A DNA stretch of 64,000 bases, taken from positions 43,751,847 through 43,815,846 of the forward strand of contig CP154954.1 in the NCBI GenBank assembly GCA_039621445.1. The letters run 5' to 3'. This DNA is from Euglena gracilis (taxonomy: Eukaryota). Positions within the stretch are counted from its first letter, which is position 1; the number at the start of each line of letters is the position of its first letter. Below, piece after piece: positions 2,968 to 55,700 of the stretch. Under the pieces are notes generated by a model that was given only the letters and a program-made list of their open reading frames with translations, was not told the DNA's origin and searched no databases. The position numbers and the translations under genes were made by a program.

Positions 2968-5402
2968 CATGCAAGGTTGGGTTCTGCTTGGACCCGTGAA
3001 ATCAGCCCCTGACCACCCCTCACAGGTGGACAGCACTCTGCACAGGTAGGAAGATGGCAGCAAACAATCCCAACTGACTGCAGAGCCACGTCGCTCGGTT
3101 GTTCACCCAGCACGGCAGCCCCTGCATATGCCACCACGCATATGTCACACCCCAGTGTCACTCCTGGCCGCCTCCGCTTCCCTCCCTTTGGCTGCAACCA
3201 TGCCGCTTTGGCCTCTGGCCCTTTGCCACACGCGCTGCGGTCCGCCCGGCAACCTGGGCCCACCCCCTTTTCAGTCCCAGTCAGGGAAGAGAGCCTCCCA
3301 TCTCTCTTTGTTGTTGACGATGGGTCATGTGTGTGTGTGTTTTGTGTGTGTATTTGTCCACGTGTGTGTGTGTGTGGGTATGTGGGTGCGGGTGTGGGTG
3401 TGGGTGTGGGTGTGGGTGTGGGTGTGGGTGTGGGTGTGGGTGTGGGTGTGGGTGCGGGTGTGGGTGTGGGTGTGGGTGTGAGTGTGGGGGGGGTGGGGGT
3501 GTTTGACCTAACAGCTGGCTTTACAGGCAGAACACCCTGTCAATCTTGTCCGGAATCCCTTGCCTGTGTCCACAGACCGTTGCAACAATTTCGCACCAGC
3601 CCGGAGTCCTCGCCAAGGCAACACGCAGGTGGCATCTCACGGCCGTGGCCCCAGCCCGCGCCGTGCCCTGGCACCAACAGGACCGCCGTCTTCCGACCTG
3701 GGCAAGTTATATCCTTCCTGGCCACCTCTGGCCACCGGCGTTTGGCTTGCTTAGCCCCTGCCTCTGTCCCCAGGACGTCCGACGTGGGCACCACTGTGGG
3801 GGTCTTCTCCCCCAGGCACCGGTGTGTGCCGCAGGTTGGGTGGGGGGGGCTCTTCCTCGACCCATGTGGGGCCCGCATCCATTGCACAACACACAAACGC
3901 ACAGCCCACAGCCCCAGCCATAGCGCCACCGCCGTTGCGTGGCCGCAGATATGACCAGGCCAAGCTGGTACCCCTGCCTGCTGCTGGAAACCTTGCAACT
4001 GTTGGCTTGAAAACATTTGCCTCTGGCTCTGGACTGATTTTGTCGCACCCCCAGGGGGATGAAGTGCATCTAAAGGGATGAAGGCCTGACCCCAGCCATG
4101 CATTTTGAGAATCAACCCGGCCCACCTACCCACCCTAAGAGGCCAGGCATCACAGGGTCTGAGTGGTCTTCATTGTTGGCTGCTTGTCAAAAAAGACGGA
4201 TATTTTGAAGTTCCGGATTTATTCCGGGCATTGTTCCTTTTCTTCATTGCCATTGTTGTGCAATGTGGAACCATGGGGGTTGTGGGGATAGGATGGGGTT
4301 GGGGGCCTCCTCGCCCTGTGCCACCGATCCAGGCAGGCGTGCGCTGGCAGCTGGTGGCATGATTGGCCTGCGTCCGTAGCCGGCACTGTGTGGCCTTCCC
4401 AGACCCAGACCCATCCCGGTGGGGTGTTGTTGCCCCTCCCGCGGCGACATTCCGTGCCACCCGCGCCCCAGCCAGAGTTGGACGAGAAACCCAGAAACCC
4501 TGTGGAGGGTGGGCACCCCCCCCCTCCCTGCCATCATCCTGTCATCGTGGTTGGTGGGCCCCCCTTCCCGTTTTTTTTCTTCCCCAGGGGCGGCAATATC
4601 CATGTCAAAACTTTTTTCTTCAAAGCTTTCGGCGCCAAAGGAAAGTTCCCTCGCAGTGCGTTGGTTGGTGGGGGGGGTCCGACACCAAAACCTTCCCGTC
4701 CAGCCATGTCCCCAACCCCTCTTGCCATCGGCTCCCTTCACCAGAGGGAGGAAAGGGAAAATGAGAGGGGCAGGGAGGGGGACAGTGAACAGTTCTGCTG
4801 TACGGTGTAGTGTACTGTTGCGCATGGATGTCCGTCACATTCTTCCTTGCTCTGCCGCTTCCATCGGACGTGAAGTTTGGTGTAAGTGTCTGCGGGTATT
4901 TTCTGTTGACGCCGTAGGTGTTGAAGACAGTGGGATTCAATTGTTTTATGCCCCTGTGCGACAATTTCCTGCTTCAATTTTTGGGGGGCCATTCCCCTTT
5001 GTTTCTGCCTTGTTTCCACAACACCCAGCCGGAGAGTCAGCCTGGAAATCCAGCATTCTCAGAGTGAAACAATCCCAAAAATTCAGAAATGTTGTCGTCC
5101 GCCAATCAATGTAATCATTGCTGGGGTCCTCAGCAAGTATCCATGCCTCCCACCCTCTGTGGGGGGGGTGCTTTTGAACCACTTTGGTCCTGCCTCTCCA
5201 CGTTCTGGGAATCAGAGAGATTTGGGTCTGAGGAACCGGACATTAAAGAAATGCAACACCGTCAGTTTTGCATCCTGTGCTACGCTGTTGCCTGGGAGCC
5301 AGTTCAAAACCCTCCCTCCCCACCCCCCATCCATCCCGCCTTCCTCTTCTCAGACATCGACGTTAAACCCGGCTTCGTTTGGGCCGCCCTCTGCTGCGCA
5401 CG

Positions 5403-7721
<2,319 letters not shown>

Positions 7722-9497
7722 CCGGAAACCCTGGAACTGCATTTTTTTTGCCCAGGACCCAGCTCCTCAAGGACCTCCCTCAGGTGAAAAGGCTGTCCAA
7801 GGGCGAAAATTGTAAGGTCAAGTTCACCCCTTTTTTTGGCATTTTGGATGGTGGGCCGTTGCTTAAGCGCAGCCTTTTTTCCAGCCTCGGACACCCCTCC
7901 CCCCATTGACAAGTTTTATTTATTTTCCAAGGATGTCTGGATGGACGGCAACACATTGCTTGCTTTCGAGGTGCAAAAAGTTTGCCAAATGGGCAAAAAG
8001 TGGCTTGTGAAAGGCCACCCAGGCAATTTTCGGGTTTTTTTTGTATAACTGGCAGTTTTTGGGGGCATTTTTTTCGAAACTGAACACAAAACAAACAAGA
8101 AACACAATTTTTTTACCCTCTTCGAACCCAACTATGGGGTCAGCCCAGCTTTTTCCAGCCGGCCCAAATTTTCGAATTTACGAGCTGGATTCCTGCAGGG
8201 TTGAAAAGCCCTTCGGTTTTGAGGTAAATCCAACTGAACCAGTGCCAGCGAGTCCAGGGGCAGCCTTTTGGACCACATTGGATTTTCATATCCTTCCCCC
8301 AATGCGTGAAAAAGTGAGTTTGCCAGGGGTGCGCACCATTGGAAGTGCCAGAATCCTGAAGGATTTGAAGTTCCCACCACGAGAGGGCTGTGCCTCTCGT
8401 GGCGGATGCGAATAAACTGTGGCGGATTAACAGATTAATGCGGATTAACTGTGGCCAACAGTTAATCCGCATTTGGTTACAGATCTTCATTTTAGAAGGA
8501 TCAAGTGCCATAGCTGGTGGCACTGTCCTGGCATTTTTTTCCTTGCAAGAAAATGAAACTTCCTGGTTAGCACCCTGGTTGTTGAGTGGGGTGCCGGCAT
8601 TCCGTTTGGCCCTATTGACGGTTGCATCATGGGCTGGGTTGCGTATTGTGTTAGAGGTTCCTGATATTTGGACGGAAATATTGGTATTGTTTGCCCAGTG
8701 AGGCCCAGTACGGTGCGTGTCCACCCGCAGATTGATAAGCAATGGGCTTGGGTCTATTTGTTGGGTGGAATGCGTCTGTTTGTGGTGTGGGATTGGGGGT
8801 GGGATGACTACACCTAAACCCCCCATAATAGGATTAATATATACACATAATAGGAATTTATGGGTCGGTTGCTGGAAAGCCCGAGGGGGGTCTTATTCAT
8901 GGGGGGGGGTCTATTTTATTGATTTTTGCTGGAAAAGTTTTTGGACACCCCAAAATGTCCAAAAAAACGACCCCCAAAATACCAATTGTCGAAGAATTCG
9001 GCGCTTCGTGCCAGACAATAGGAGAAAATATGCTGAGTTGTGTGAAAATTGTTCCAAAATGGCAGATATATCCCCCAAAATGCCCCATTTTTTCAAAAAT
9101 CCAGCGCTTCGCGCCGGCAGGGGGGGGGTCTATTTATGGGGAGGTTCATTTCATGGATTTTTGCTCGGACCAGCCAGGAAGGGTCTTATTTATGGGGGGG
9201 CTTATTTTTTGGGGGGGGTTACATTCATGAATGTGGTGTGATGGCCTACACCCATTGCTGTGATGTGGTGCTTCTCCTTCACTGGGAACCCCAGCATGCA
9301 GATTTGAATGGCGGGCACCACATCTATGCACAGGTATTTGCCGTCCGGCGGAGTGGAGACAGTCAATTTCACTTTTTCTGATGTACGTGGGTTGGAATTA
9401 TCACCCCAGAATGGTGAACTCTAACTCAGTAACTCTCAACCCCCCCTTGCGCACCGCATCCGTGGGTGTGGTGTAGGTGGCTGCCGGCATGGGCCCC

Positions 9498-9513
9498 CCC
9501 TTCCGACCCCCAG
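9498..9513 (+). promoter_or_regulatory. Candidate spliced-leader trans-splice acceptor (pyrimidine-rich + CAG)
   Basis: CCCTTCCGACCCCCAG ends 23 nt upstream of the ATG at 9537. An analogous TTCCT(C/G)TTCTCAG precedes the other gene (ends 5353 and 34553). Inferred from euglenozoan SL trans-splicing. Confidence 0.35.
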
Positions 9514-9536
9514 ACCTCCCTGGTCCCACCCCTGCC

Positions 9537-12500
9537 ATGCCGACCCACCACCCCAGCTACACGGGCTCCGACCGGTCCACCAGCCACGGCCACATGCTCA
9601 TCGACAGCGCGGTGCTGGAGGCGCTGCCGCAGAACCCGCAGGAGGACATCGTGCCCGTGTTCGTGGAGGTGCCATTCGGGGCGGGGGGCGGCCGTGCCAC
9701 CGAGAGCAGGCCGGTTGTCTTTCATGGATGGATTATCGTTGAGTGGCATGGAGTGGTCCCCCGGGTCCCGGGTGGTTGGATCATATTTGGTTCGTGGTGC
9801 TTGTGAATGGAGGCTTTTTTCGGCATCCCTTTTCTCCAAGTAGGTTCCCTTCCCATGCTTTCCGGGGTGTGCCCTCCCCATTCATGGGATTGAGCTTGCC
9901 CATTTTTGGGGGGTTGGAAAGAGCACAGAACAGCCAAGCCCAAAGAGGGGAATTGATCTTCAAAATTGAGGAATCTATTGCAATGGCGCCACCCTTGGCC
10001 ACCCGTGGGCCAACCACAGTAAGCACTGCAATAAGAGCTCTTCAGACCAGAAGCCCGAGGGTTGGGGGACCCTCCTCCCCTTTGCACCGCCGGCCCCCTC
10101 GGTGACCCCCAACAAGTACGAGCTGGAGAAGGACTGGGGCCTGCTGACCCTGGACCGCGTCCTGCACAGCTCCGTGTTCTACCCCGGGGACTACGGCTTC
10201 GTCCCCAACACCCTGTGCGGCGATGGCGACCCTTCGAGGTCACTGCTGGCCAACTCGCTGGCCATTTGGGATAAATACCTTAGGTGGCGTATCTCGCACT
10301 TAAGCTTTTTTAGGTCGATGTGCGCATTTTCGCACACCACCGGCGTTGCAAGTGGTGAGGGTGAGAGGCAGAAGCATTGGACAAATATGAGCGATTTCTC
10401 ATTTTGGGCACTGGCTTTCCTGGGAATTACGTGTTTTTTTTGCTGTTTTTTTTTTGAGGTCAGAATGACACGAAAACCCCCGGACCTACCCCCCCCTCAA
10501 AGTGGGAAAAAACACCGACAAAAACACCAAAGTTCCGGTGCCACCTCCCCCCATTCCCTGTGTGACAACTGCCAGCGCCAGGTGGTGCTCTGGAGGTGGG
10601 GTGGCAGGTCGACCCACCTCTTTGCTTGCTTTCTGAAGTTTTGCGGCACATTGTGGGGGTTTTTGAAGTTAGCCACAGAAGGAGTGGAAGTGCACATGCA
10701 ACATAAACAATGGACTGTTCGAGAATTCTGCCACAGGGGTCTCATGAGGGGGATAAAGAACACAGGAGGATTGCCACCAGTTTTCTGTTGAATTCAGTGG
10801 CAAGTTGCCCATCAATGCCCTGCTGCTGTTTAAGGCTCCGTGGCTGTGCTCAAATGCACACATGGACGATGTGCGCATTTGCACAGACCAACCATTTTCA
10901 AACCAACTGAGAGCCTCCAATGGCAGTGTGTTTGGAGTTGGAAAATGAATGTGACAACACTGTGATTTTACCTCCCTTGTATTCCTGTGGTGCTGGACCC
11001 CCTTTGTTGAATTGCTGGTATGTTTGGGCTTGGTGTGCGCAAATGCGCGCATCAACCATTAAAATGGTTGCTTTTCACAATTGTGGGCACCAACCAGAAT
11101 TCCTTTTCATTTTGAAGCCTTGGCAACCGTGACTTCTGAGACGAAGGATCGAAACAGGGTGTTGTAAGGTGTACTTGAGGAGGTCAAATGAAGCGTGTCA
11201 GTGCATTGCATTATGTGGCACCCTGAACACAGGGGTTTTCAAGTCAGCATACACATCCATTTTCAGCCAATGTACTGTACCTCATTTTTTGGACTAAAAT
11301 ACTGGGGGTGAAGGGCACTTCTAAGATTAGTTTTTTTCAGGATAAAACCTGAAAATGTCGTTTGTTTTGATGTTTCAGGGTCCAAGAATGGTTTTTCACA
11401 GCTTCAATTGCTGATGCCCAAATTCGGGCCCGCAGGCTGGCCGTTCTATTGTGTAAATTTGTAAATTTTACAGAATACCTCGCACGTAAGGATTTCCAAA
11501 GTGCAGTGGTGCCACACCCTCCAAATGGTACGTGTGTTAAGTTGCACAAGTGGGTGTTGTGTGCAGATGAGCCAACCCACCAAACAGACTGTTTTTCGCA
11601 TTTGCACAAGCCAGCCGCTTGTACAATTTTGCAAAGATATCAATTGCAGCTGGCACACATGGTCCTTTCACACTTACACAAACGGTTGGTGTGCGCATTT
11701 GCGCACACCGCCCATTTGCGCATTTGCCCACACCGATCGCCAATTTCTCAAACAGCTAAGTTGCAGGGTATCGCTTCAGGCTTAGACGCAGCTCACCAAA
11801 TCATTCAGTCAATATCCTGTTAACGAGACAGCCATTGTTCAAAACACACCTGCTGGACGTTGTGTGTATCATATGCTGCGGTTACACCTGCTCTTATGCA
11901 CTACTATTTGCCAAAGCCCCAGCTTCCATCTCCTCGTCCTGGCACAGCACATCCTGCCTACATTTTTGGGTTTTTGGGGCCATATCTTGTCATTTTTGTT
12001 AAAAAAGATGTCCATGTATGCGTTAGTGCACATTAACAAAGAAAAAAAGCTTAAGTGCGAGATGTGCCGCCAAAGAATACCTCGTTTGCTGGGCATTTTA
12101 TTCTTGTTGGTGCCTTTTCTTTTCCTTTTTTTCCCTGTATTTCTCATTCTTTATGTTTTTTGAAAACGCTGCAGGTTGAATCCACTGCATTATTTGTATG
12201 AAGGCTCAAAAGCATTTTCATTTCTGGAAACTGGAGGGACAAAAGACAAAAGATTATGTCTCAAAACCGTCTTGATTTATCTCATTTAATGCCATTTTGC
12301 AAAACTGAATGATCCCCAAACGTTAGCCTTATTTAATGTCTTAAACACACGCCCATACACACACACATACTGCCAGTGAAAGACTGTCTGCTATGCACTC
12401 CCGGCCAGCGGCTCCGTTGAGCGGTGCCCTCGCCACCAATCGACGTGCTCATCCTGTCCAACTACCCCCTGACGCCGGGCGTCGTGGCGGATGCCCGCAT

Positions 12501-13386
12501 CATCGGAGTGATGGACATGGAGGACGAGAAGGGGCAGGGCCAGGCCCCTGGGCCCTGTGCAGGAGCCCCTCCCTTTTTATCGGGAGACTCCCCTCCCCTC
12601 CGTCCACACCCGTGCCACTTCTCTGCGACGTGATGGGTCCCCGTTCAGCCCTCGTGCCCCCCTCACCCACTGTCCCCAACAACCCCCAACAACATCCCTA
12701 ACATTCAGCGGTGCGTAGCCCGGTGGGTGGCCAGGACCTTGCCTGCCCAGGACCAGAAGCTGCTGGCGGTGGTCCACAAGGACCCCCGCTCTGACACGAT
12801 CCGGGACCTGCCCGATCTCCCACCCAGGGTCCGGACCTCCGCCGCCGCAGGCGGAAGCACCGGCTTTCCCCTCGCTGGGTCCTGCACCTGCTTCTACCAC
12901 CAGAGGAAGAAGTGGGACCATTTGCAACCGACTGTGGGTCCTCCGGTGTGTCTGCTTGGACAGGCACTCCAAGGCACCCAGATCCGACGCCTGGGGGCGG
13001 GTAGAGTCCCTACCCAAAGTGCCTGGCACTCTGACGCGGAAGGCGCCGCAAGCCCAGAAAAGGCCCATTTTGAAATATTTTGGCCCACGACCAGGCAGCT
13101 ACCGATCCCCAGGCAGCCAGGGGGAAGTGCTTGCCGGCCCGCTGACCCCCCCCCCCAGTGTTGGTCGAATTCAGCCTGCTCCAACCCCCCCCCCCCCCGC
13201 CCACCCATCCTGCCCTGCCGCCGTCACACTGCATGCGGGAGATCCAGCACTTCTTTGCCAACTACAAGCGGCTGGAGTCCAAGCCCGGCCACGTGAAGTG
13301 GGCCAAGGTGAGCGGCTTCCACGGCCGTGAGCGAGCCCTGCAGGACCTCCGCGACTCCCGCCAGATGTACCTCGCCCGCCGCCCCT
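9537..13386 (+). CDS. ppa: PPase domain 1 (exons 1-5)
   Basis: [55 protein letters not shown]...[13 protein letters not shown]...[13 protein letters not shown]. All canonical catalytic residues present. Confidence 0.92.
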
Positions 13387-16300
13387 GACAGCCTTCCTGA
13401 AGGGGGTGGTTTGTCCCCCCCCCCCGGAAGTGGTTGTCATCCTGGCGAGGCTATAATCTGCCCTTTGGAAGTTGCCGCGAGGGTCTGTATTGGAAGCATC
13501 AGGTCAGGATTTTCCCCGCCTTTAGTTAACAACCGCCCAAAGGGCCTCATCGGGTGGCCAAGTAACAAAAATCACCCCAAAAAAAAACAGAAAATCCAAA
13601 AGTATTTTCTTCAACGTTGATGATTGCTGTCATGCTGGTAAGTCCTCAAAAGGCCTAAGTTGTGGGCTTGTGCCCAGTTGTTTGTCAGCTGAAGACTTTC
13701 AGCTGACAACTTTGTCAAGGCGCAATGAAGATTGTGCTGCCTTTGGTCCTTGTGTGCGTTTCGTATAATGTAATAGTTTTTGGTGGGTGAGCAAGGACAG
13801 CGTAAAGCCAGTTTTCTCTGCCCTCGTTTTTGGGGGGCTGTTCCTTGCATGAATGCGCCTGTGCTCAGCGCGGCGACCTCGAACACAAGAAGTCGGAGGC
13901 CGCCACGGAGGGGGAGGAAGGCGCCCAAAACCGTTGCGAGCAGCCGCCAGTGGACTTCCACCACGCGCCCCGCGACCTGTTCGGCGTGACCCGCGCCGGG
14001 CAGGCCCCCCGATACGACATGTTCCCGGCCCACGGCTGGGCAAGCCATGTCGTTTGGGTGGCTCCCTCGCAGTGGAGTGGCAGGGGAGGGGCATTTCTGC
14101 CTCGACCCCAGGCCCTCTGTCTCATCTGGATAGCTTTTTTTCGTTGTTTATTTTTTTAAGCACTCGCATCGGATAAACCTGCTCCTCCTGCTCATGACTG
14201 TAACGTCCCAGGAGGGCCTCGCCGTGCCCGGGACATCGTGCAGGCGTACATCGAGTGCCCTAAGGGGGCCAACAACAAGTACGAGTTCGACGACGAGACG
14301 GGCTGCGTGCGCCTGGACCGCGTGCTGCACTCCGCGGTGTTCTACCCGTACGACTACGGCTTCATCCCGCGCACCCTGTGCGGCGACGGCGACCCCCTCG
14401 ACATCCTGGTGCTGTCCAGCCAGGGGGGGTTGACCCTCCTCCCCGGACCAGATCAGAGACAATCAACTGTGGTTGCTTTCCGAGGGGGGGGGTGTTGCCA
14501 TGGGAGGTTGGCTCACGTTTTGTTGGCTGTGGCAGGGCCATCCAAGCTACTTCATCTCAACTGACTGGTGTTTGGATTGTGGCCGGCCACGGCTGGCTGC
14601 TTTTCCAACCAACGGGGGGACACATTTTTCTGTGTTTGGATCACCTTCGGCTGCGGCCAGCCTCAGCCAGCCAGCCGACCAATTGTTGAGTAATTCCGCA
14701 GTTGATGAAATTATTTAAAGGAATAGGGTTACGGTTAGGATTCTAATAAAAACAGTTGGACCTGTCCATTATTACATTGGTCTCCACAAGGTGCACAGCA
14801 AACCCAAAGAGCCACCCAACTAGGGCAAAATGGGTGGACCCGATCGACGCGCCAAAGGCACCGACTGAGGGTTCTCCATGTGTATTACCCCTATTTGGGC
14901 GGCTGTCTGGGGCAACTGGTACCCAGCAGGGGCCAATTTATCACGCAAATATGACCACACATTGCAATCTGGGGGAGCTCTCTGGTTGGGCTCATGTCCG
15001 GCCGCAGCTGGCTGCGGCCGGCTGCAGTTCCAAGCATTGCATTGCCAGCAACGTCCATGGTTGGATTTCTGGCTGGTGGCGGCTGACCGCCGCGGGTGCC
15101 AAATTCCAACCAGATAATTTTTCTTTGAACTCGGTTGGCCGTGGCCGACAAACCAAACGCAACCCAACCTCCCACAGCAAACCTCCCGCTGATCTCCACC
15201 GGATCCTCATTTTTTTTCAGTTACATGCCAATGCTTTTTGTTGTGTTTTGCACACTCAGCAGTGCTAAGGTATTTTCAAACCGCGCATCCACACACATGC
15301 AGACCATACACGCCAACCACCCACCCACCCACCCACCCACCCACCCACCCACCCACCCACCCACAGACACAACCACACACAACACACACAAACACACAAT
15401 ACACAACACACTGACCCACCCACACCCACCTACCCCCCCCTTTCTCTTTGATGGGCACGAAGACCAAAATGCACAGAACCGAACAAAAGACGGAGGCACA
15501 CATTCATGCGCCTCAGCCCATTCTCAACCACAACGACTGCCCAGTGACACAACTGATGCGTACCACCTCCACCCAATTTCCCCGCACCTCGGCAAAGTGT
15601 CCGGCACCCCAGCCTCTCGAAGTCCCCCTCTGCCCCCACCTTCTCCCTCGCCCCGGGCACGGTGGCCGACGCGCGCGTCATCGGAGTGCTGGACATGGCG
15701 GACGAGAAGGGCGCCGACGCAAAGCTGCTGGCCGTGGTCCACCAGGACCCCCGCTTCCTGGAGGTCAACGACCTGCCCCCGGTGGGTTTTAACCTCTCCC
15801 AAAACAAGACCCCCTCGACTGATTTTCAGCAGAAAAAGCCCAGAAAAACCAGACCCCCCCGAAATGAGACCCTCCCAGGATTCTTGAAAGATTTCAAAAG
15901 ACAAACTCCCTGAATTTGTAAAAGTGCACCACAATGTGCGATTTATTCGTTTTTTTTTATTTGCCATTTTTTCAGTGGTTGAATGTGGCATTTTTGAGAA
16001 TTTTTTCGCTCATTTCCAAGAATCTTGCTTTTTTTGAATCTGCTTTTGGACTCTCCCGTGGGAACTCTTTTTTGAACGATTTTACAGCAAAAATCGAAAA
16101 AATGGACCACCCCCCAAAACAAGACCTCTTTTGGGATTTTCAGCAACGGACCCAAAAAGAGGATCCACGGTCTTATATTTGGGTGGGATTTGGCCCTCTT
16201 GGCAGCCAGACATCGTTTGGCAACTCTATCCTCCAGGGGGTTGCTGTGTCGCACACTCCTCCTATTGATGTCTCGTTTGGGTCTGCCCCTCCCGCATCGG

Positions 16301-19253
16301 AAGGCATGAACACAGGACCCCGCCGGGCCCCCAACGGACATCGGGGAGCACGTCAAGGTGGAGATCCAGCACTTCTTCGAGACGTACAAGTCGCTGGAGA
16401 AGGACAAGTGGTCCAAGGTGACTGGCTGGCGCAACAAGAAGGCCGCCATCCAGGAGGTGCTCGACGCGGCTGCGACGTATGACCGCACCGCCACGGACTT
16501 CATCAACGTCCCCCGCCTGTACCACCTCAACCGAGCTGGCCCTGCCCCCCCCCCCCTAAAGGCCCCCAAAGCACACCGAGGGATTCATCGGCGCATGCGG
16601 TGAAAATGAAAAACCACGATGCGGAAAATTTCCAAAAACAGCCCGGAAATGCCACACCAAGGGAAAATGGGCCGTTTTGGCCCATTTCTCCAAAATGTGA
16701 CCCAACTTGTCACCACCATATCTTGGATATGTCCGACCATCGCTCTGTGAGAAAAAAGGGGTGTTAAAAAATATTCCATATTGCATGGTTTCGCTGTTCC
16801 TGACGACTGCTTGTATCACAAAGGTGCCCAGACAGGGCTTCCGGGTTGCGGTTCAGGTGCTCTCGGCGCGGCCGAGTCCCTTCCACCGCTGGAGGCTAAA
16901 ACAAAGCAGAGCCTAGCAAAAATGATGGAGGAAAATGGACCAGTGCAGAATTGAACAGAAGGAAAGGAAAGAGTGACCAAACCCCACTCCCGAGTCTGGT
17001 GCGTGTCTGTCTGTGTGCAGTAAGGCTGTGACTTGCCGACGCGAAAATGCATGTGTTTTCCTCACCACCGTGTTGGCATTGTGCCTTTTCCTTCTAATTT
17101 GCAGTGTGTGGGGCAGGGTGTGCAACCCGTGGCAATTAACCCGTTCAACGTGGTGCAGAGAACCGTGGCTCGTGTTCAACTGAAGGACACTTATTGGAGC
17201 TGATAGCATGGGGGTCGGGCAGGGACCCGCAGGGGGGCTCGCAGGGGACATTGGGGTGGAGGCGCCGAAGGTGGTCAACGCCGTCATTGAGAACCCGAAG
17301 GGCTCTTCCAACAAGTACAAATTCAGCAAGGAGGTCGGCCTGTTGAAGCTGGACCGCGTGTTCCAGCCGCCGCCCCAACCACACCAAATCCGCCCGCGCC
17401 CAACTGCAGGGTTGTACGGGAGTCTCCGCAACCGGGTGGTGGGTGGGGGGTTGGCCCCCCCACCCCCATCCTGGTGGGTGGGGGCGGTGTACCCCCCCCC
17501 ACCAGGCTTTTCCATATCTTCCCTTGGCATATTTCTGGGGGCGCCGCTTTTTTAGGTCAAATTTTCCTTTGGCGCCTTTGGCAGCTAAGGAGTTTTCTTT
17601 GCGCCAGTGCCATGGTCCCGGGTGGTGGGGGGTCTGACCCCCCCCCCCCAGGCCTTCCAGTATCCTGGTACAGGGGGGGGGTACATGGTAGGTGGAGGTT
17701 TGTGGTCACAAATCTTCTTTTTGTGAGCCATTTTCATTACGATTTTAACATGGTAACACCCGTGCCCCCCCCCCCCTGGCCCCCCTTTTGGGTCCATGGG
17801 AACTGGGGGGGCACTTTGGGGGGGGGCACTTTTGGCGCCAAAGGAAAATGGCCACTTTCAGGGTACCAACCCTCAAAGTGGCCAAAATTTTTGGCAAATT
17901 TTTGGCAAACCACCAAAATCAGAATAACCAATTTTTCGCATGGAGCCAGGTGTTTTTTTGGCCGTTCCTTATGCCTGGTCGGGGCAATCATGCCACGACC
18001 AGGCATACCCCCCCCCAACCTTGTGGCTGGGGCGGTGGGGCCACTCCTCTGCCTTCTACCCTGGCAACTACGGCTTCATTCCCCAGACCCTGGGCTCCGA
18101 CGGCAACCCGATGGACGTCCTCATCCTCTCCTCATTCCCTCCTGGGCCTCCCCATCGTCTGTGATGGGTTGATTGGGGGAGGGGGGTATACAATCACTAA
18201 GTCACTGGCCGACCCCCCCCCCCCCCGGGGGGGGGGGGGGTGGCTGGTTTTTTCAGAGTGACTGACTGGTTTTTGGCCCAGACTCCCTACCCCCGAGGGG
18301 GGGGGGGTCGGCAAAAAGCCACTAAAGTGCCTCGGCGCCGAAGGTGCCGGAAATTTTTTTGGTGTTTTTTTCTTCATGTTTTTGGTCAAATTTTCTTTGG
18401 ATTCCAGACTGGCCGACCTGGTGTCTGAAAAAAAGTGACTGACTGGCTTTTCGAAAAGTGGAGTGACCCCCCCCCCCCCCCCGGGAGGGTCGGCAAAAAA
18501 TTGTATGGAGGGGGGGGGTAGGGAGCGCGTCACCCCTCACTGTGTTCCCTGACGCTAGGGTGTATAATGTAAAATAATGTAATGTGATGTAAAGTGAGTG
18601 CCAGTTTTGAATGGGGTGGGGGACGTCTGACGATCCCCCTGCCCTAAGGGGAGGGGAGTTCCAAATGCCCTCCCTTTGGGTTGAGGGAGGGTGGGGGGGG
18701 AGGGTGCAGGGTGGATCGGCTATCGGGAAAAGTGTCTGGCCCAAAGCGTCAGGCATTTTGGGGGGTTTGCTGTTATTTTGGGGGTTTCAAAAGTGTCCTC
18801 CAAATCGGGTTATCCAGTTTTTTTTTGACAGATCAGTAAACAATCAGTGGACAAAACATAGCAGAATGGTGGCTAGCTATAGCACATAAACAGTAGCAAA
18901 ACCAGCTCTTTTCTGGTTTGAAGCAGAGGGGTTTCGGAACCCTCCTCCCTCGCATCACACCCTAACCCCCCCCCCCCCCAATAACCTGGCGGAGCCCTTG
19001 CTCCTGGCAGTGACCGAATAACCTTGAGGGGGGAGGTTCCAGTAACTTGGCACCCCCCACTTTTGGCAATAATCCTTTACGGCGCTGAAAAAAGGGCCCA
19101 AGTAGCCTGGCAAGGGGGGGGGGGCAGGGCCAAAAGTTGGTTCCAGTAACCTGGCACCATGCCAGGTTATTTGGGGGGTTACCTCCCTTGATGTCCAACT
19201 CTCACCCTCCCACTCTTCCACTCACCCATTGGCACACCAACACACGCACCACA

Positions 19254-19349
<96 letters not shown>

Positions 19350-19359
19350 CACACGCACA

Positions 19360-19403
<44 letters not shown>

Positions 19404-19413
19404 CACACGCACA

Positions 19414-19465
<52 letters not shown>

Positions 19466-21852
19466 CACACAGAAATACGCATGCACGCACGCACGCGACA
19501 CAGACCTGTTGGCAGCCATTGGGGGGGGGTCCGCAGCCGCTGCACTTCCAGTGCGTGGTGGCCGTGCGGGCGGTGGCCATGCTCTCCCTGGTCGACGAGC
19601 GCGGCCCCGACACGAAGATCATCGCTGTGGCAGTAAAGGAGCCGCGCATGGACGAGATCCAGGACCTGGACACACTGCCCGCCCACGTCAAGGAGGAGAT
19701 CCACAACTTCTTCCTCCACTACAAGGTGTGTGCCACGAAGTGTGTTGTGTGCGATGTGTGCGTTGTGTGCGTTGTGTGTGTGTGTGTGTTGTGTGTTGTG
19801 TGTTGTGTGTGTTGTGTGTGTGTTGTGTGTGCTGTGTGCGTTGTGTGCGTTGTGTGAGTGCTCAAGCTTGAACATTCTCCGGAGGGAGGGCAATTGATAT
19901 CCACAGTTCTCTTGCAACTTTCCATGCCGAATTTTCATCCGCACCCAATTTTCCAGTCCGCAATTTCCTGCGATTTTCTGCAGTTTTTCCCCCTTGCAAT
20001 TTCCCCCGAAATACTCGAAGATTGGGGGGATTGATTGGAGGCGTTTGGGAAAATGGCGAAAAAAAATTGAAATAAAATATACCGTGGTGGACACCCCTGA
20101 TATAATGTAGACTGAGGGAGAAAAGAAGGGGGTATTTCATGCATGAGCGTGCTCCACTGTCTCCAAGTGATGCACAAGGATGCTCATCAGCATCTTCCAG
20201 TTGCAGGTAAGTTGTAAGAGGCTCCGTCTCTAATGTCAATTGTCATTTTTTTCTCTGACTGGGACCCGTACAGAAAAGTGTCTCCTGCCTCCGCACCTGC
20301 TGCCCTGCCCTTATAGGGAGGGACCTGTCTCCTACCTCTGTACTCGCTGACTTGTCTGAGGCAGTTTCCTTGGGGGGGTTGGTATGATTTAGAGACAACA
20401 TACCCAGGCCAGGATTTCGAAGGGATGCTTGAAAGTTTGAAAGCATTACATGCCCCCCCCCCCCCGTCCAACCAAGCTTGTCCAACGACCGGCCCCTGGT
20501 CAGATGTGACGTTTTTGAAAACCATGCTGGTTCCAAAGATAAGGGAATAATTGTGTATTAATTTGCTTTTTTTTGCAAAAAAGCTGGACAAAAATGGCCA
20601 AAAAAATGATTAAAATGTCTGAAAATGCAAAATGCTAGGACTCAATATGGCTGAAAAATGGAAGGAAATTTCTAAGGGTGGCTTGACATTGCGCTAGATT
20701 GCGACAATTGGCCAAGAGTTTCCAAAAGCTGGCTAAAAAAATTGCCGAAATATTTTATAATGGCCAACAGTAGCTTAAAAAGAGTGGCACTTGGCCCCCT
20801 CTCCTTACATGCAAACTTGGCCTTCTGCCTTCTGCACATGGCTGCCAAAATTCTTAGTGCAAACCTGTTGCCCCTATAAGGTTGGCCCCTGGCTTTACCT
20901 TCAATAATGGCTTGGGCCAAGCGCCCCCCCCCCCGGGGGGATAGGTAACAGCGGCCAAAAGTGGCCCAAAGAGGCCAAAGTGACGAAATTAACCCAAAGG
21001 GCCGAAAGCACAGCATAAAATGGCCAGATCTTTGTACAATTTCTCCTGACCTGGGTCCCCCCCCGTCGCATAACCCCAACCCTGGCCGGAGACGAACGTT
21101 GGTGATCGTTGGACAAGGGGGTGTTGCGGACAAGTGCACGAGCACCTCTTCATTCCCCACAAAAGCGGTGAAAAGAGCGGGAAACAGCAGATACTACGAG
21201 TCGGGTAGCATCGTCCAGGACTGTTCTGGGGTTGGCAGGTGAACCATATCCATCCCCCGCTTTGGATTCCTTCAACCTCGCCCGGCCTGCCCGATCTGGC
21301 AATCTGAGGGGGTGTTGCCATGGGAGGTGGAAACGTGGAATGCTGCAACGCCGCCCGTGAACACGGCCGCAGCCAACCGCAGCCCTGCCAAATCCCACGT
21401 TAACCCTCCCCCTGCGTCTCAACAGGACCTGGAGGACACGGCCTCGTTCTCCCGCATCACCGGCTGGGGCGACCGACAGGACGCCATCGAGAAGATCCGC
21501 GCCGGCCACGAGCTGTTCTACCTCTTCGGGCAGCGCATGGACGAGGCCGCCCAGGGCCAACCCTACCCCCGCTGGGCGGTTGCCGAGGGTGCCCCAGTTA
21601 CCCCTCTCAGAGTCTTCATGATGGGCCGTTCCGCGGCATTGCCGTCTCCTTCCACACACCAGTTTGTCGGGCAGGCGGGGGGGGGGGTGGCAGAACGTTC
21701 GGGGCGGCTCTGCTCAGGAGGCGAAGGTCTTCAGCCTGGAGCAAGAGAACACGTCCCTGAAGGGGGAGCTGCAGGCAGTCCGCACCTACTGCGACGAAGT
21801 GGTGGCGAAGATGCAGGAGCAGATGCGGGCGCTGGAGAAGAAGGTCGGCTGA
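9537..21852 (+). CDS. ppa: Triple-domain soluble inorganic pyrophosphatase (family I) with C-terminal coiled coil, 14 exons, about 655 aa
   Basis: Exons: 9537-9679, 10104-10232, 12438-12537, 12751-12821, 13223-13386, 13846-14027, 14232-14417, 15638-15774, 16333-16528, 17247-17364, 18043-18133, 19533-19725, 21426-21548, 21718-21852 (1968 nt, in frame, TGA at end). Three sets of PPase motifs: ExPxGxxNKY, LDRVxHS, YGFxPxTLxxDGxPxD, DExGxDxK, EIxxFFxxYKxLE. The exon 5/6 junction is the least certain. Confidence 0.85.
10279..12075. mobile_element. TIR element (about 1.8 kb, non-autonomous) inside PPase intron 2
   Basis: Imperfect TIRs GGTGGCGTATCTCGCACTTAAGCTTTTT / AAAAAGCTTAAGTGCGAGATGTGCCGCC, AATAC on both flanks, internal TGCGCATTTG repeats, no transposase ORF. 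Confidence 0.7.
14232..16528 (+). CDS. ppa: PPase domain 2 (exons 7-9)
   Basis: [55 protein letters not shown]...[13 protein letters not shown]...[23 protein letters not shown]. Confidence 0.92.
17247..21548 (+). CDS. ppa: PPase domain 3 (exons 10-13), divergent active site
   Basis: [55 protein letters not shown]...[13 protein letters not shown]...[13 protein letters not shown]. Includes the only clear GT-AG intron of this gene (19726-21425). Confidence 0.88.
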
Positions 21853-31727: not shown

Positions 31728-34602
31728 CGTCGCAGGCGGGCATGCGTAGCAGGGTGGTTGGTGTTACTGCTTACTGAAAGCACAGGGGTTTGGGTTAGGA
31801 CCGGCCAACTGGATTCTTTCCCCCCGCGTGAAACGCGCATCCGGCCTGCCTCGGCCGCGCGATTCCCAAAGTGGCAGATCGGCAGTAAAGCCCGCCGAAT
31901 GGTTGGGGAATTGAGCCCTCCTGGTCTTTGGAGTGACAGGAATAGGGCGGGTGCTAGGATTTGCGATGCAGGCATTGTTATCCGGCAGGGAGGCCGGATA
32001 CGCGTCTCACGTGCGGGGGTGGAAATCCGGCCAGCCGGTCTTAACCCTAACCCTTCAGCAATCAGTAACTCCAACCACCCAGTGGGGGGTGGTGAGCAGC
32101 AAGGGCCCCCCAGGGGGGCTTGCTACCCGCCTGCCATACAGACACACACACATATACATACACATATGTACATATATGTATGTATATGTACATATAGCAT
32201 GCAAGAGTGGGTTCTGCTGACCATGCACCTCCTCACAGGTGGACGGCACTCTGCACTCTGGTAGGAAAACGGCAGGAAACAATCCCAACTGACTGCAGAG
32301 CCGCGTCGCTCGGTCGTTCACCCAGCACAGCATATGCCACGCATATGTCACACCCCAGTGTCACTCCCTCCTGGCCGCCTCCGCTTCCCTCCCTTTGGCT
32401 GCAACCATGCCGCTTTGGCCTCTGGCCCTTTGCCACACGCGCTGCGGTCCGCCCAGCAACCTGGGCCCACCCCCTTTTCAGTCCCTCAGGACAGAGAGCC
32501 TCCAGTCTCTCCTTGTTGTCGACGATGGGTCGTGTGTGTGTGTGTGTGTTTTGTGTGTGTGTGTGTGTTTATGTGTCTACGTGTGTGTGTGTGTGTGTGT
32601 GTGTGTCTGTGTGTGGGTGTGGGTGTGGATGTGGGTGTGGTTGTGTGTGGGTGGGATGTGTGACCTAACAGCTGGCTTCACAGGCGGAACGCCTTGTCAA
32701 CCTTGTCCCATAATCCCTTGCCTGTGTCCACAGACCGTTTCAACAATTTCGCACCAGCCTGGAGTCCTCGCCAAGGTAACACGCGGCGTCTCCAGCCGTG
32801 GCCCCAGCCCGCGCCGTGCCCTGGCAGCAACAGGACCGCTGTCTTCCCACCTGTTATACAAGTTACAAGTTACATGTTATATCCTTCCTGGCCACCTCTG
32901 GCCACCGACGTTTGTCTTGCTTTCTTGCTTGCTTAGCCTCCTCCCTCTGTCCCCAGGACGTCCGGTGTGGGCACCACTGTGGGGGGTCTGTTCCTCTCCC
33001 CCAGGCACCGGTGTGTGCCGCAGGTTGGGTGGGGGGGGGCACTTCCTCGACCCATGTGGGGCCCGCCTCCATTGCACAACACACAGCCCACAGCCCACAG
33101 CCCACAGTCCCAGTCACGGCGCTACCGCCATTGCGGGGCCGTAGACATGACCAGGCCAAGCTGGTACCCCTGCCTGCTGCTGGAAACCGTGTGATGTTTT
33201 GTTTGAAAATGTCTGCCTCTGGTTCTGGATGGAATTTGTTGCACCCCCAGGGGGATGAAGTGCATCTAAAGGGATGAAGGCCTGACCCCAGCCGTCCATT
33301 TTGAGAATCAACCCAGCCCGCCCACCCACCCCAAGAGGCCAGGCATCCCCAGGGTTTGAGTGGTCTTCATTGTTGGCTGCTTGTCAAAAAGAAATGGATA
33401 TTTTGAAGTTCTGGACTTATTCCCAGCACTGTTCCTTTTCTTCGCTGCCATTGTTGTGCGATGTGCAACTGCGGAGAAAGGATGGAGGTGCGGACCTCCT
33501 CGCCCCGTCCGGATGCACCGATCTGGTCCGGGCGCTGGCAGCGGGGTGCAGGGCTGGCCTGCATCCGTAGCCGGCGCTGTGTGGCCCTCCCTTCCCGGCA
33601 GGGTGTTTTTCCCCTCCTGCGGCGACATCCCGTGCCACCCGTGCCCCAGCCAGAGTTGGACGAGAAACCGAGAAACCCCATGCGGGGTAGGCATCCCCCC
33701 CGCCCTCATCCTGTCATCGTGGTTGGTGGGACCCCCCCCCGGGTGGGTGGGTGGGTGGGTGGGTGGGACCCCCCCCTTTTTTCCCCAGGGGCACCAATTT
33801 CCATATCAAACTTTTTTCCTTCAAAGCTTTCGGCGCCAAAGGAAAGTTCGCTTGCACTGTTTTGGATGGTGGTGGGGGGTCCGACACCAAATCTTCCCGT
33901 CCAGCCCTGTCCCTAGCCCCTCTTTCCATCGGCTCCCTTCACCAGAGGGAGGAAAAGGAAAGTCAGAGGGGCAGGGAGGGGGACAGTGAACAGTTCTGCT
34001 CTACGGTGTAGTGTGCAGCTGCGCATGGATGTCCGTCGCATTCTTCCTTGCTCTGCCGCTTCCGTGAAGATCCGTGAAGATTACTGTAAGTGGCTGCGGG
34101 TATTTTCTGGTTGGCATTGTAGGTGTTGAAGACAGTGGGATTTGACTGTGCTATACCTCTGTGCGACAATTTTCTGCTTCAATTTTGAGGGGGCCATTCC
34201 CCTTTGTTTCTGCCTCGTTTCCACAGCACCCAGCCGGAGAGTCAGCCTGGAAATCCAGCATTCTCAGAGTGAAACACTCCCAGGAATGCAGAAGCCGGCA
34301 AATGAGTGTAACCATTGCTGAGTCCTCAGCAAGTCTCTGTGCCTCCCAGTCCCTGGGGTGTGTGTGTGTGCTTTTGAACCACTTTGGCCCTGCCTCTCCA
34401 CGTTCTGGGAAGCAGAGAGATTTGGCTCTGGGGAGCCGCACATAACAGAAATGCAACACCGTCAGTTTTGCATCCTGTGCTACGCTGTTGCCTGGGAGCC
34501 AGTTCAAAACCCTCCCTCCCCACCCCTCATCCATTCCGCCTTCCTGTTCTCAGATATCGACGTTAAACCCGGCTTCGTTTGGGCCGCCCTCCGCCGTGCA
34601 CA

Positions 34603-51481
<16,879 letters not shown>

Positions 51482-53799
51482 CTGGCTGGCCCCGTCCCAC
51501 ACACCCCCTGCGCTCCATCATTGCACCTTGTCCTCCCCCGTCTGGCGTGTTCCTGTTGTACCCCCGCCTCCCCTGTCTTCTGCCCCCCCTTCCGCAATGC
51601 ACTTCCCGAACCAATCCCGCGCCACGCCCCTTGCCACGGCCCCGCTGGGGGATGCGCAGGCGCTTCGGCCCTCGACGCGTCCCCCTGGTGGGTGGACCGT
51701 CCAAGTGACACCGGAGCCGGCCTCAGTGGCCCCGCCGTCCCCTTTCCCTTCCCTGCCCCCCCACCGCCCCCCTCTCCTTGCTGTACAGGCCGAACAAATG
51801 CCTCGCCCCTATTTTGGTTCTGCCACAGAACCAGCGATCCGAACCCACGCTGGCAGCAATGGCCTCCATTGGCCTTCTCTCCAGGACTTCTCTTGTCTCT
51901 TCTCTGTCCCTCTTGATTCCCCATATAGGCCACCATGGCCTGTTTTTGGCATTGGCTTGCTGCCCCTGGGGGTTTTGTGTCTGAAATTCCTGGGGGGAAA
52001 GTTGGACATACCTTTCCCCAATTCTTTGAGGTTCTCCTTAGCTTTCAGATTCATTCTTCATGGAAGTCCAGTTATTGATCTTATCTTAGTATTTGCAATG
52101 CTTCTGGAAATAATTCCAGTTGAACTCGAAGAGCTGAATTCTTCCTCCAGGAAGTTGAAGGTCCGAAAAAAAAAGTTCGCTCCACCAGTTGATAAAGTGA
52201 TTGTAGTTCGTGAACGTAGTACTCCTCGTAAATAATTTCGCTTGCACTCGTTGAAGTAAAATTCTTTCTCCTTGAGGTCGAAGGGCAGAATTAGGAATCA
52301 GCCGACACCTCGGGCTCCGCACTTTGCCCTTGTGAGGCCATGCCTTGCTCGCCGGCAGTGTTGTTTGGATTGTTTGGGTGCGCTGGGTTAGGAGGTCCCG
52401 CTTAGTGCCTTTTTTCGCCGGAGTTGGCTGACTCCTAATTTGCCCTTCGCAATTGAGAAAAGAAGAAGACAATCAATCTATTCAATTTATCCAGAAAGTC
52501 ACGCTCGTGAAGAACTTCAAATCAAAAGTTGTTGACTTTTTCGAAAGAATTCAATGAAAGATGCAACTTCAAAGAAGCACAGCGCTGGAGAACTTCAAGA
52601 GGGAGCAGCAGCAGCAGCTGGACAACCTGACGACGCGGGTCAACTGTGGCGAACCGTGGCTGCCCCTTCCCCAAAAGAAATTTCCCCCACAGAAATTTAC
52701 AGAACCCAAGCCCCCCAGACCATTCGGGCTCCGCACTGCGAGATGGTGAGGTCCTGCTTTCCTTGCCGGCAACAAAAGAAAGCAGGACCTCACCATCTTC
52801 TTGTGCTTCGCCCTCTTGGTCCCTTCCTCCCCCTTCCTCTGTCTTGGGAGTCCGAAAGCGATGGCCACGGACCCTGGCAGACAGTGGTCAGAAGACCCCG
52901 AAAGGGGCAGAAGCAACAACCAGCAGGCCACTACGGCCATTGGCGCCAGGGCCATTGGGGCCAACATTATGCCAGTTACACCAATCCCTTGTTCAAGCTG
53001 GGCCATGGCGGCCAGAACAGCAAACTGGGCCATGGCGGCCACAACAGCAATGGCCATGGCGGCCGATGGAAGGCCAGGGTGGCCAACAATACCAAGGCCA
53101 GGGTGGCCGATTCCACAAACAGATGCCCAGTGGCAGGGGCAGGACAGGTCCACAACCCCCCCAACCATTTATTCATCACAAACCCAATCAGGGGAAAAGG
53201 ATTGGCCCCCAGAGGCCTCCCAAGATTTTCAATGGGCATGGCGCCCAAGATCAAAGAGAAGTCAATGGGGACATCAAGAAGGCCAGCGGGGCCAGAATTA
53301 TCATCAAGGCCACTGGGGCCATTGTCATTCTTATCAAGGCCATTGGGCCCAACACCATCCTCAACAACGACAAATTCAAGGCCACTGGGGCCATCAATTA
53401 TCAGAAGGGGAGAACCCCCAGAAGCTAAAAGGCTGTCCCCCAGCAGGGGGTTTCAATGTACGGTGGCAGCCCCAGGAGGATGCTCCCACAGGGGCAGTGG
53501 AGGACAAGGGGGCAACCCCCCCCTCAAAATTCTTTGTCAATGCCCATGGCAGGGGCAAACCAAAACAAGGGGGAGACCCAAAATGGGGCCCCTATGGTAT
53601 GTCAATCGGCAACGCCAATGACGAAGTGGAGGATCAGAGAGTCTGTGAGCAGAGCATGCACACCCCCCAGCCACCTTCAGAGAATACTCAATCCCTAGTG
53701 GCACCAGGGGTGCGATGTCCAACACCCCCCACCCAGCACCCAGAAAATCATCTAGTTGGGAAAATACACTCCATGGAGGAAAAATGGGGAGACACCCCC

Positions 53800-55700
53800 C
53801 TGTACCAAAGACTTCAGAAAAGTCTAAAATGGTGGACAAAAAATACCCCCCAGCAACATGTCAATTGATAGAAAATGGAATTCAACCCCCCTGGGTGAAT
53901 CCCCCAAAATTGTCCACCCACCCAAAACCCAGAGCCAACCTAGACCTGAACCAGGCAGAAAAAATCCTGTTGGATTACGAAAAAACTGGGGCAGTGAAAC
54001 GAGTTTGGGACTCAAAAACCCAGCATTTGATCCCATGGTTTTTAATTTCAAAACCAGAAGGGGGAACAACCAAGTGGAGAATGATCAGCGACTGCAGAGA
54101 AATAAATCAGCAGTTTCAAGTAAAACCTTTCAAGCTGGATCATATCCAGCACATTTTTCCAGTTTTGGAAAAAGGCCACTGGGCAGCAAAAATAGACCTA
54201 AAGGATGCCTATTTTCATATTCCATTACGTCCAGGCGTAAGGCCATTTTTAAGGCATCAGGTGGGGGGCAGACCTGGGAATTTCAAACAGGCTGCTTTGG
54301 GCTAAATGTAATGCCCCAAATTTCATGTCAGTGACGAAAACGTTCGAAAAGCTGTGGAGAAAAAGAGGCATCCAGGTGTTTATTTACCTGGACGACATTT
54401 TGCTGGTGGCCCCCACCCAAAGCACATTTGCAAAATCACCTGAACAGAGTTGTCAAAGATTTGCTGTATTCTGGGTTCAAAATCAATGTAAAAAGTCCAC
54501 TCTCCAGCCCACACAAGTGGTAACCCATCTGGGTTTTCAACTGAACTACCAGGAAGGAAAGCTACAGGTGCCACCCCTGAAAGTCAAAACCATAAAAAAG
54601 GAGCTGGGAAAAATCGTGAAAAAAGATTACATGCCAAAAAGGCAGTTGGCTGCCATTTTGGGCCAAATAAGATGCAACCTAATGGCCCTGCCCTTTTTAA
54701 GGGCTTTTACAGACACCCTGGCAATTTTTTTCGTGGCAAAGTCCACAGCCCCTTGGGACTCAAAACACCCCATTTTCCAGGAAATCAAAGCCCAATCAAG
54801 GGAAATAAAAATTCTCCTGGACACCTGGGGGGGCAGACCCTTCCCCCAAAATGCAACCAGAATGTTGCACTCAGACAGCAGCACCCATTCCTGGGGGGGG
54901 CTAGACATCCACACAGGAGAAATTGTGCAGGAATTTTGGAGAAAAGACTCCATTTTGCACATCAATGTAAAGGAGCTCAGTGCAGCAATCAGCACTGTGA
55001 AAAGTTTGAGCAAACCTGGGGAAACCGTTTCCTTTTCAGTGGACAACCAGGTAATTTACTTTTACCTAACAAAAGGTGGGGGCAGAAAGGACCCCTTCAA
55101 CAAATGCTAAGACCATTTTTCAAGTGGTGCATGGAGCACCAAGTAAACCTCCAAGTCAACTGGGTGCCTTCAAAGGAATGCCTAGCAGACCCCATCAGCA
55201 GGTGGGAAATGGACAGGGGGGATTATTCTTTAGACCCCCAACTTTTTCAATGGCTCAGACAGCAGTTCAAAGATTTCATAAATCTGGAAACAGATTTATT
55301 TGCCTCACCAGGCAACAAAAAACTGCCCAAATTTGTTGCCAGGTGGCCCCATTGGGAATCTACAGCGGTAAATGCATTACAATGTCCACTGGACAACATG
55401 GGGGATCTTTATGCAAACCCCCCAGTTCAATAATTCAAAAATTTTTACCAGGTTGAAAATGTATCCCCAGACCAAAGTTTTGATGGTCACCCCCTACTGG
55501 GATTCAGCCACACGGTGGCCCCAATTAATAAAAATGAAAGTATCAGGGACCCCCTGCCTGAAAATCACCCCCTACAGGGGTATGTTCACCAATTGCAGGG
55601 GGGAACAAATGCCACCCCCCAGGTGGCCCCTGCTTTGCATGATTTGCTCAGGCAAATTTTGGAGGGGAAACAAATTCAGTTTAAAACCATTGAAGATTTC
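53800..55700 (+). pseudogene. DIRS pol: reverse transcriptase, RNase H, methyltransferase-like domain
   Basis: Motifs are split across ORFs 53715-54305, 53858-54334, 54325-55110, 54672-55433 and 55372-55722, i.e. at least four frame changes. Confidence 0.85.

Follow-up and report, generated by a model that had tools for sequence, protein, structure and literature searches.

Gene structure and transcript

The 64,000-nucleotide stretch of Euglena gracilis DNA analysed here (the window; contig CP154954.1, positions 43,751,847 to 43,815,846) carries on its + strand, at 5403–21852, a nuclear gene of 18 exons for a 744-residue protein in which three diverged family I inorganic pyrophosphatase (PPase) domains are joined in one chain. 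The window is characterised by short exons and long introns, and the PPase pieces were found in + strand stop-to-stop open reading frames (ORFs) between 9.5 and 21.9 kb. When the window ORFs were compared with the Pfam family Pyrophosphatase (PF00719), five of eight pieces scored above threshold (E values of 4.6e-13, 1.2e-22, 1.7e-17, 1.7e-09, and 1.1e-05), and a sixth piece at 17184–17555 reached 18.2 bits, below the cut-off of 23.5. When the first exon of domain 2 was used as a query, 120 proteins were listed, the top match being a transcript-derived protein of 744 residues (eukprot EG_transcript_1590, hereafter P0001), which matches PF00719 in three stretches with 515.5 bits at the same cut-off. 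Tblastn of P0001 against the window gave 17 exon matches and placed the gene start well upstream of 9537, where an earlier note on this DNA had put it; the actual start lies at 5403, and four upstream exons (5403–5420, 5709–5819, 7247–7373, and 7648–7697) add a module of about 100 residues.

Spliced exons 2–17 encode 701 residues without a stop codon, collinear with residues 44–744 of P0001, and the frame ends at the stop codon 21850–21852. The three PF00719 stretches and the open spliced frame bear out the earlier note's view of three diverged family I PPase domains in one frame. The window copy and P0001 agree at 686 of the 701 positions (98%), and seven of the 15 mismatches fall in the exon that links domains 1 and 2, indicating that the linker is the fastest-changing part of the protein. 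The whole product has a mass of 83.6 kDa; the roughly 73 kDa expected earlier holds for residues 103–744 (72.5 kDa) and not for the complete chain.

All exons lie on the + strand. Exon 0 (5403–5420), with the start codon and the sequence MSLADL, was located by pattern search and equals the first six residues of P0001; its junction with exon 1 is ambiguous owing to a repeated GACTTG. Exon 1 (5709–5819), which encodes the first part of the N-terminal helical module, was identified by tblastn, and its end coincides with a 30-letter loose end of the RNA reads before 7247. The module continues in exon 2 (7247–7373; tblastn 97.7%) and ends in exon 3 (7648–7697), both supported by RNA joints. Domain 1 occupies exons 4–8, each likewise supported by RNA joints: exon 4 (9528–9679, also by tblastn) carries a low-complexity leader and the first strand of the domain with the E20 site, exon 5 (10104–10230; Pfam E 4.6e-13) the NKYE, LDR, YPGDYGF, and DGDP motifs, exon 6 (12436–12534, also by tblastn) D70, D97, and E98, exon 7 (12748–12819) D102 and K104, and exon 8 (13221–13368; Pfam E 1.1e-05) the C-terminal helices with Y141 and K142. 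Exon 9 encodes a charged helical linker, corresponding to a predicted helix at residues 288–322, and the N-terminal arm of domain 2. A charged linker exon between domains 1 and 2 had been noted before with bounds of 13846–14027, which the RNA joints correct to 13876–14026. The first half of domain 2 lies in exon 10 (14231–14418; RNA joint, a loose end behind 14418, and Pfam E 1.2e-22), and the rest in exon 11 (15639–15775, boundary ambiguous by at most 3 nucleotides; tblastn, collinearity, and the exon 10 loose end, which reads into it) and exon 12 (16334–16527; Pfam, tblastn, and collinearity), which also holds the short link to domain 3. Domain 3 starts in exon 13 (17246–17363), where NKYK reflects a change of E31 to K, and continues in exon 14 (18042–18140), where DGNPMD reflects a change of Asp67 to Asn; both were placed by tblastn, active-site alignment, and collinearity. 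Exon 15 (19540–19725; Pfam E 1.7e-17, tblastn 100%, and collinearity) adds a further part of domain 3, exon 16 (21426–21547; tblastn and collinearity) its end and the start of a long C-terminal helix predicted at residues 676–743, and exon 17 (21717–21852; ORF, tblastn, and collinearity) the coiled-coil tail, with a modelled interface at residues 693–743, and the stop codon. The heptad-like tail sequence is exactly the one given in the earlier note.

Transcript evidence was obtained by mapping two raw RNA-seq runs and two contig sets, all with the same species label, on positions 6400–15300. Eight joints chain exons 2–10 (7373>7648, 7697>9528, 9679>10104, 10230>12436, 12534>12748, 12819>13221, 13368>13876, and 14026>14231), and two loose ends extend the chain to exons 1–11. 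The joint 13368>13876, leading from domain 1 to the linker exon, was seen in raw reads only (15 of X21 and 7 of X24), and 14026>14231 leads from the linker exon to domain 2. The loose end before 7247 (82 reads of X21) equals the last 30 letters of exon 1, a 30-mer also present in a paralogue at 35021, and the loose end behind 14418 (22 reads of X24) continues into exon 11. First mates of the stranded run X24 mapped on the − strand, indicating that the RNA derives from the + strand. Almost all intron ends are non-canonical (CC..CC, GG..GT, CA..CC, and others), as is typical of euglenids. At many exon positions, approximately half of the RNA reads differ from the window letter, indicating that at least two near-identical copies or alleles are expressed. 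Apparent joints that go back, at 6616–6634 and 13185–13206, were discarded as poly-C tracts drawing low-complexity reads, and a chimeric contig whose end at 13255 continues with domain 2 sequence probably reflects a jump of the assembly from one domain to a similar one. The RNA joints, together with collinear transcripts in several species, agree with the single continuous coding sequence proposed earlier: the gene is expressed as one mRNA and encodes one chain.

Active sites and the three-domain family

The three domains are each about 170 residues long, the unit size of the prokaryote-type enzyme, and share 50.8% (domains 1 and 2), 39.3% (domains 1 and 3), and 40.1% (domains 2 and 3) identity. 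Fourteen active-site positions were scored (E20, K29, E31, R43, Y51, Y55, D65, D67, D70, D97, D102, K104, Y141, and K142), with a numbering that we take to be that of the Escherichia coli enzyme and residue roles that are partly presumed in the same way. Domains 1 and 2 of P0001 keep all 14 residues, and the 15 positions at which the window copy differs from P0001 all lie elsewhere. Across the 44-member family defined below, the full set is present in domain 1 of 43 members, in domain 2 of 16, and in domain 3 of none. The domain 2 site, lost in 28 of the 44, is kept in the euglenid-type and Guillardia-type groups and nearly all lost in the diplonemid-type proteins.

In domain 3, Asp67 is replaced in all 44 members by one of N, K, R, E, S, Q, A, and T; in the Euglena gracilis gene, Asp67 has become Asn and Glu31 has become Lys. 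The statement on Asp66, Asp68, Asp98, and Lys143 of Acinetobacter PPase in PMC6770254 counts Asp68, the equivalent of Asp67, among the highly conserved residues that coordinate cations or pyrophosphate (PPi). The absence of this conserved catalytic Asp from domain 3 in every member indicates that the three units are not equivalent enzymes. Other active-site residues of domain 3 are still kept in 38–41 of the 44 members (E98 in 41, D102 and Y141 in 40 each, K104 in 39, and K142 within the same range). On this pattern, catalysis by domain 3 is probably impaired, though ligand binding may persist. The trimer–trimer contact residues His136 and His140 showed no clear pattern across the three domains. 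Matches to PF18823 (InPase) were sub-threshold, lay inside the PPase domains, and were disregarded.

The family set was drawn from a full-length search with a 610-residue query, which listed 74 proteins; 44 of these cover at least 87% of the query at E ≤ 1e-98. Every one of the 44 has exactly three PF00719 domains, and 41 end in a C-terminal tail of 38–78 residues that opens with a conserved hydrophobic helix; the three members lacking the tail are genome gene models that end early. Named members come from Euglena mutabilis, Eutreptiella braarudii, Diplonema papillatum, D. ambulator, Flectonema neradi, and Rhynchopus euleeides, together with a record labelled Guillardia theta, and the remaining members are mostly marine metagenomic. 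The 120 matches listed for the domain 2 exon comprise 18 proteins with exactly three domains and 102 with a single one.

The origin of the three units was examined in a domain tree (quick IQ-TREE, LG+G4) of 54 domains of triple proteins and 34 of the 102 single-domain matches, taking every third. The domain 1 sequences formed one group (support 87), as did the domain 3 sequences (support 100), and a single branch (support 93) split the 54 triple-protein domains from the 34 single-domain PPases. Domain 2 was divided by long branches, and its monophyly was not rejected (p-value of the approximately unbiased test, 0.593). These groupings indicate one ancient triplication behind a conserved three-domain family.

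A profile search was also run on a library of 1.84 billion representatives, where 10,676 proteins matched at E ≤ 0.001. Among the best 150 of the 10,676, three cover the whole profile in one stretch, and four others have 3 to 17 separate stretches of differing kinds. So few multi-stretch proteins among the best 150 indicate that multi-domain family I PPases are rare, not unique. The three-copy architecture search called for in the earlier note, which allowed that such proteins might prove common, thus found triple proteins to be rare though not unique. P0135, P0309, and P0310 (545–586 residues; metagenomic and NCBI records) also have three PF00719 domains per chain. They are only 31–35% identical to P0001 and, in contrast to the family described here, keep the 14 catalytic residues in all three domains, with E98, which lies outside the 14, changed to G, N, or D. 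In P0135, no coiled-coil tail was seen by eye, and the N-terminus is hydrophobic and signal-peptide-like, suggesting a secreted bacterial enzyme. This group probably arose by a separate fusion. The multiple stretches of P0311 (Citrus) and P0150 look by eye like gene-model or assembly artefacts, and these two were set aside. P0138, an NCBI-sourced protein of 5113 residues with 17 stretches matching the PPase profile, strings together a long series of diverged PPase-like repeats of the eukaryote type, whose active-site motifs are degenerate.

No description of this triple protein, or of any family I PPase in tandem or fused form, turned up in the open-access literature searched, a 2024 review (PMC11210485) included. 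The earlier suggestion that the architecture is undescribed therefore holds for that literature and fails for the sequences, because about 44 unremarked database proteins already carry it under the plain label 'inorganic pyrophosphatase'. Such a label gives no hint that two domains out of three may be inactive. The triple protein is a real, conserved variant of family I PPase with an unexpected built-in asymmetry, apparently undescribed.

Predicted structure and alternative readings

The monomer prediction recommended earlier was carried out for two members with AlphaFold2, and both models are compact. For P0001, an 18-row alignment gave a mean predicted local distance difference test (pLDDT) of 82.9 and a predicted template modelling score (pTM) of 0.76, with three beta-rich domains, a linker helix at residues 288–322, and a single C-terminal helix at residues 676–743. 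For the Diplonema protein P0014, the mean pLDDT was 84.1 and the pTM 0.85, and its degenerate domain 2 was still well folded. Domain pLDDT was mostly above 90 in both models. Given how pTM is defined, such values require that all three domains be placed confidently against each other, because no single domain makes up as much as 25% of the chain. Among solved proteins, Thermus thermophilus PPase (2prd) is the best match (E 8.9e-57). A Foldseek search with the model gave 144 PDB matches at E ≤ 0.001, all 47 of those listed being PPases of the single-domain prokaryote type, and 2prd matched at E 2.2e-20 with a TM-score by target (TMt) of 0.91. The individual domains reached TMt values of 0.86–0.93 with at most 55% identity, the upper figure being that of domain 2 against Thermus PPase in the fold alignment. 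The solved chains match at most one domain of the model (TM-score by query [TMq] of about 0.21–0.22).

The C-terminal tail is a helix, some 50 residues long, in which heptads recur regularly. In a two-copy model of residues 526–744, the score was 0.46, against 0.00 for the best of three controls, the runs shared at least 92% of contacts, and partner pLDDT was at least 75. The modelled interface is confined to residues 693–743 and forms an in-register parallel coiled coil. Of proteins solved as pairs of one chain, 20 of 30 reach the mark used for such complex models; of those solved as single chains, 1 of 23 does. The model is thus in keeping with the dimerisation through the coiled coil that the earlier note had suggested.

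Family I PPases are hexamers of two stacked trimers (PMC6770254). The prokaryote-type enzyme (Thermus thermophilus 2prd, E. coli 1ino) has the fold common to all three domains, and its full catalytic set is found in domains 1 and 2 of P0001. Whereas the known prokaryote-type enzymes are single-domain subunits in non-covalent hexamers (PMC6770254), the triple protein holds three diverged copies in one chain, adds the coiled-coil tail and, in Euglena gracilis, the N-terminal module, and has one copy that is catalytically incomplete in 44 of 44 members.

We favour an explanation in which the gene encodes an 84-kDa single chain whose three PPase domains would pack into one compact body, standing in for a trimer layer of the hexameric prokaryote-type enzymes. 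The parallel coiled coil would then join two such chains, giving a particle of six domains. PPi would be hydrolysed by domain 1, and by domain 2 where intact, and domain 3 would be a conserved pseudo-enzyme unit with a structural or ligand-binding role, which may be regulatory. Taken as a whole, this explanation seems to us rather probable; packing geometry, dimerisation, activity per domain, and a cytosolic location are what we infer within it. Several points weigh against it. The junctions of exons 11–17 were placed by protein collinearity, not by mapped reads. The likeness of the three-domain body to the bacterial trimer is a proposal, and the two-copy model shows no contact between the two copies of domain 3 or any other domains. 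Moreover, the pass of the coiled coil expresses model confidence only, such helices being easily paired, and the mark itself is weaker for eukaryotes (17 of 29, and 1 of 7 among those without an older solved relative). Finally, loss of Asp67 alone does not prove that domain 3 has zero activity.

Among the alternatives, the one that fares best takes the coiled coil as an anchor and not as a dimeriser, such that an asymmetric PPase would be tied to a coiled-coil partner or to a cytoskeletal or flagellar structure and would remove PPi locally. The tail is kept in 41 of 44 members yet has no family assignment, its weak likenesses to the coiled coils of dynein light chain, SAS-6, and others being sub-threshold, and the homodimer is known from a model only. 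However, that in-register model passed its controls, and no candidate partner for the tail was identified. We regard anchoring as unlikely, and note that the anchor and dimeriser readings are not mutually exclusive.

A changed chemistry was also considered, in which the protein would act on another phosphoanhydride (such as polyphosphate) or as a sensor of PPi or phosphate, rather than mainly as a PPase. Kinetoplastid soluble PPases with an added N-terminal domain have been reported to hydrolyse polyphosphate, and the never-complete site of domain 3 and the frequent loss of that of domain 2 would suit such a role. Nevertheless, all 14 catalytic residues are kept in domain 1 of nearly every member (43 of 44) and in domain 2 of the euglenids, including the Euglena gracilis gene, and domain 2 remains 55% identical to Thermus PPase. 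This possibility therefore appears quite improbable.

The earlier note had offered a cleaved polyprotein as its own alternative, in the manner of the euglenid precursors of RbcS and the light-harvesting complex (LHC) proteins. On this reading the chain would enter an organelle and be split there into three PPases, each near 20 kDa. Euglena is known to make polyproteins (PMC4938576), and in both systems several units of the same family stand head to tail in one mRNA. The RbcS and LHC polyproteins have a tripartite plastid presequence, units that are nearly identical, and conserved decapeptides that link the units and are excised (PMC4938576); the triple PPase has none of these features. Over the first 80 residues, the Kyte–Doolittle mean of a 15-residue stretch peaks at 0.97 in P0001 and nowhere exceeds 1.71 in 18 three-domain proteins, the relatives' peaks lying on the first strand of domain 1, so no hydrophobic N-terminal presequence is present. 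The two linkers share no 3-mer and contain no RbcS-type decapeptide, and domain 2 passes into the natural N-terminal arm of domain 3 with no spacer. In addition, the units are only 39–51% identical, each has its own orthologues and its own fate, and non-photosynthetic diplonemids have the same architecture. Cleavage into separate enzymes is thus very improbable. An artefact in which three adjoining PPase genes were misread as one, which the long introns between domains and their lack of GT-AG ends might invite, has a negligible chance of being correct, given that raw RNA reads spanning the junctions from domain 1 through the linker to domain 2 refute it for these two domains, that transcripts assembled independently in several species show this collinear frame, tail included, and that the spliced frame is free of stop codons.

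Returning to the favoured single chain with its paired tail, a broader and more tentative reading is that a homo-oligomeric enzyme was made single-chain and then subfunctionalised. The trimer layer would have been fused covalently a single time, in a lineage ancestral to euglenids and diplonemids or in one that donated the gene to them. Domain 1 alone would have remained universally catalytic, domain 2 would be dispensable and dead in diplonemids, and domain 3 would be obligately non-catalytic, ligand-binding, and maybe regulatory. The coiled coil would replace or reinforce the trimer–trimer contact, yielding a 2 × 3 pseudo-hexamer with built-in active-site asymmetry. We consider this a possibility that falls somewhat short of being probable. 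As Mg-dependent PPi hydrolases that form hexamers or dimers, family I PPases are standard examples of homo-oligomers, and how their subunits communicate has been debated for decades. A natural single-chain PPase whose three sites are respectively always active, sometimes active, and never complete would be a ready system in which to study the contribution of neighbouring subunits to catalysis, and a clean example of pseudo-enzyme domains arising within oligomers. It may also serve as a lineage marker tying euglenids to diplonemids, the latter being abundant ocean protists.

N-terminal module, neighbouring gene and other features

The N-terminal helical module of about 100 residues, encoded by exons 0–3 and not mentioned in the earlier note, is absent from the other 43 family members and so far known from Euglena gracilis only. 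The kinetoplastid acidocalcisomal soluble PPase combines an N-terminal EF-hand domain with one family I PPase domain. The triple protein resembles it in having a helical N-terminal module before a family I PPase in a euglenozoan, and differs in having three PPase domains rather than one and a module without a Pfam EF-hand match. Residues 1–130 gave no Pfam family, EF-hand included, even at E up to 10. A language-model search returned EF-hand-like proteins for the module (0.92–0.93), which is a lead only.

A second gene on the + strand, starting at 34603, contains near-identical copies of PPase exons 0–3 (34940–35056, 36071–36199, and 37410–37470). The likeness of the two genes takes in upstream DNA and parts of introns, positions 4007–7407 being 82–93% identical in nucleotides to 33203–36232. 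An RNA contig runs from exon 3 of the neighbour into a different exon at 38485 (…GRAALADVLEENDGFLEPAEL…), which no PPase exons follow, and a Pfam search of this next exon found no credible family. Because the neighbour carries copies of these exons, its contig continues without PPase exons, and the other 43 family members lack the module, the module seems to have been acquired recently, by capture or duplication of 5′ exons common with the neighbour (33203–38620).

Elsewhere in the window, long + strand ORFs at 53600–56250 contain a reverse-transcriptase-like motif (…IYLDDILLVAPT…), and this region is, by eye, probably a retroelement. Long intron microsatellites of CACA, CCAC, CACG, and GT units were observed at 5915–6341, 15313–15429, 19243–19496, and 19740–19860. 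The whole window contains 66 poly-C and 71 poly-G runs of at least 8 letters.

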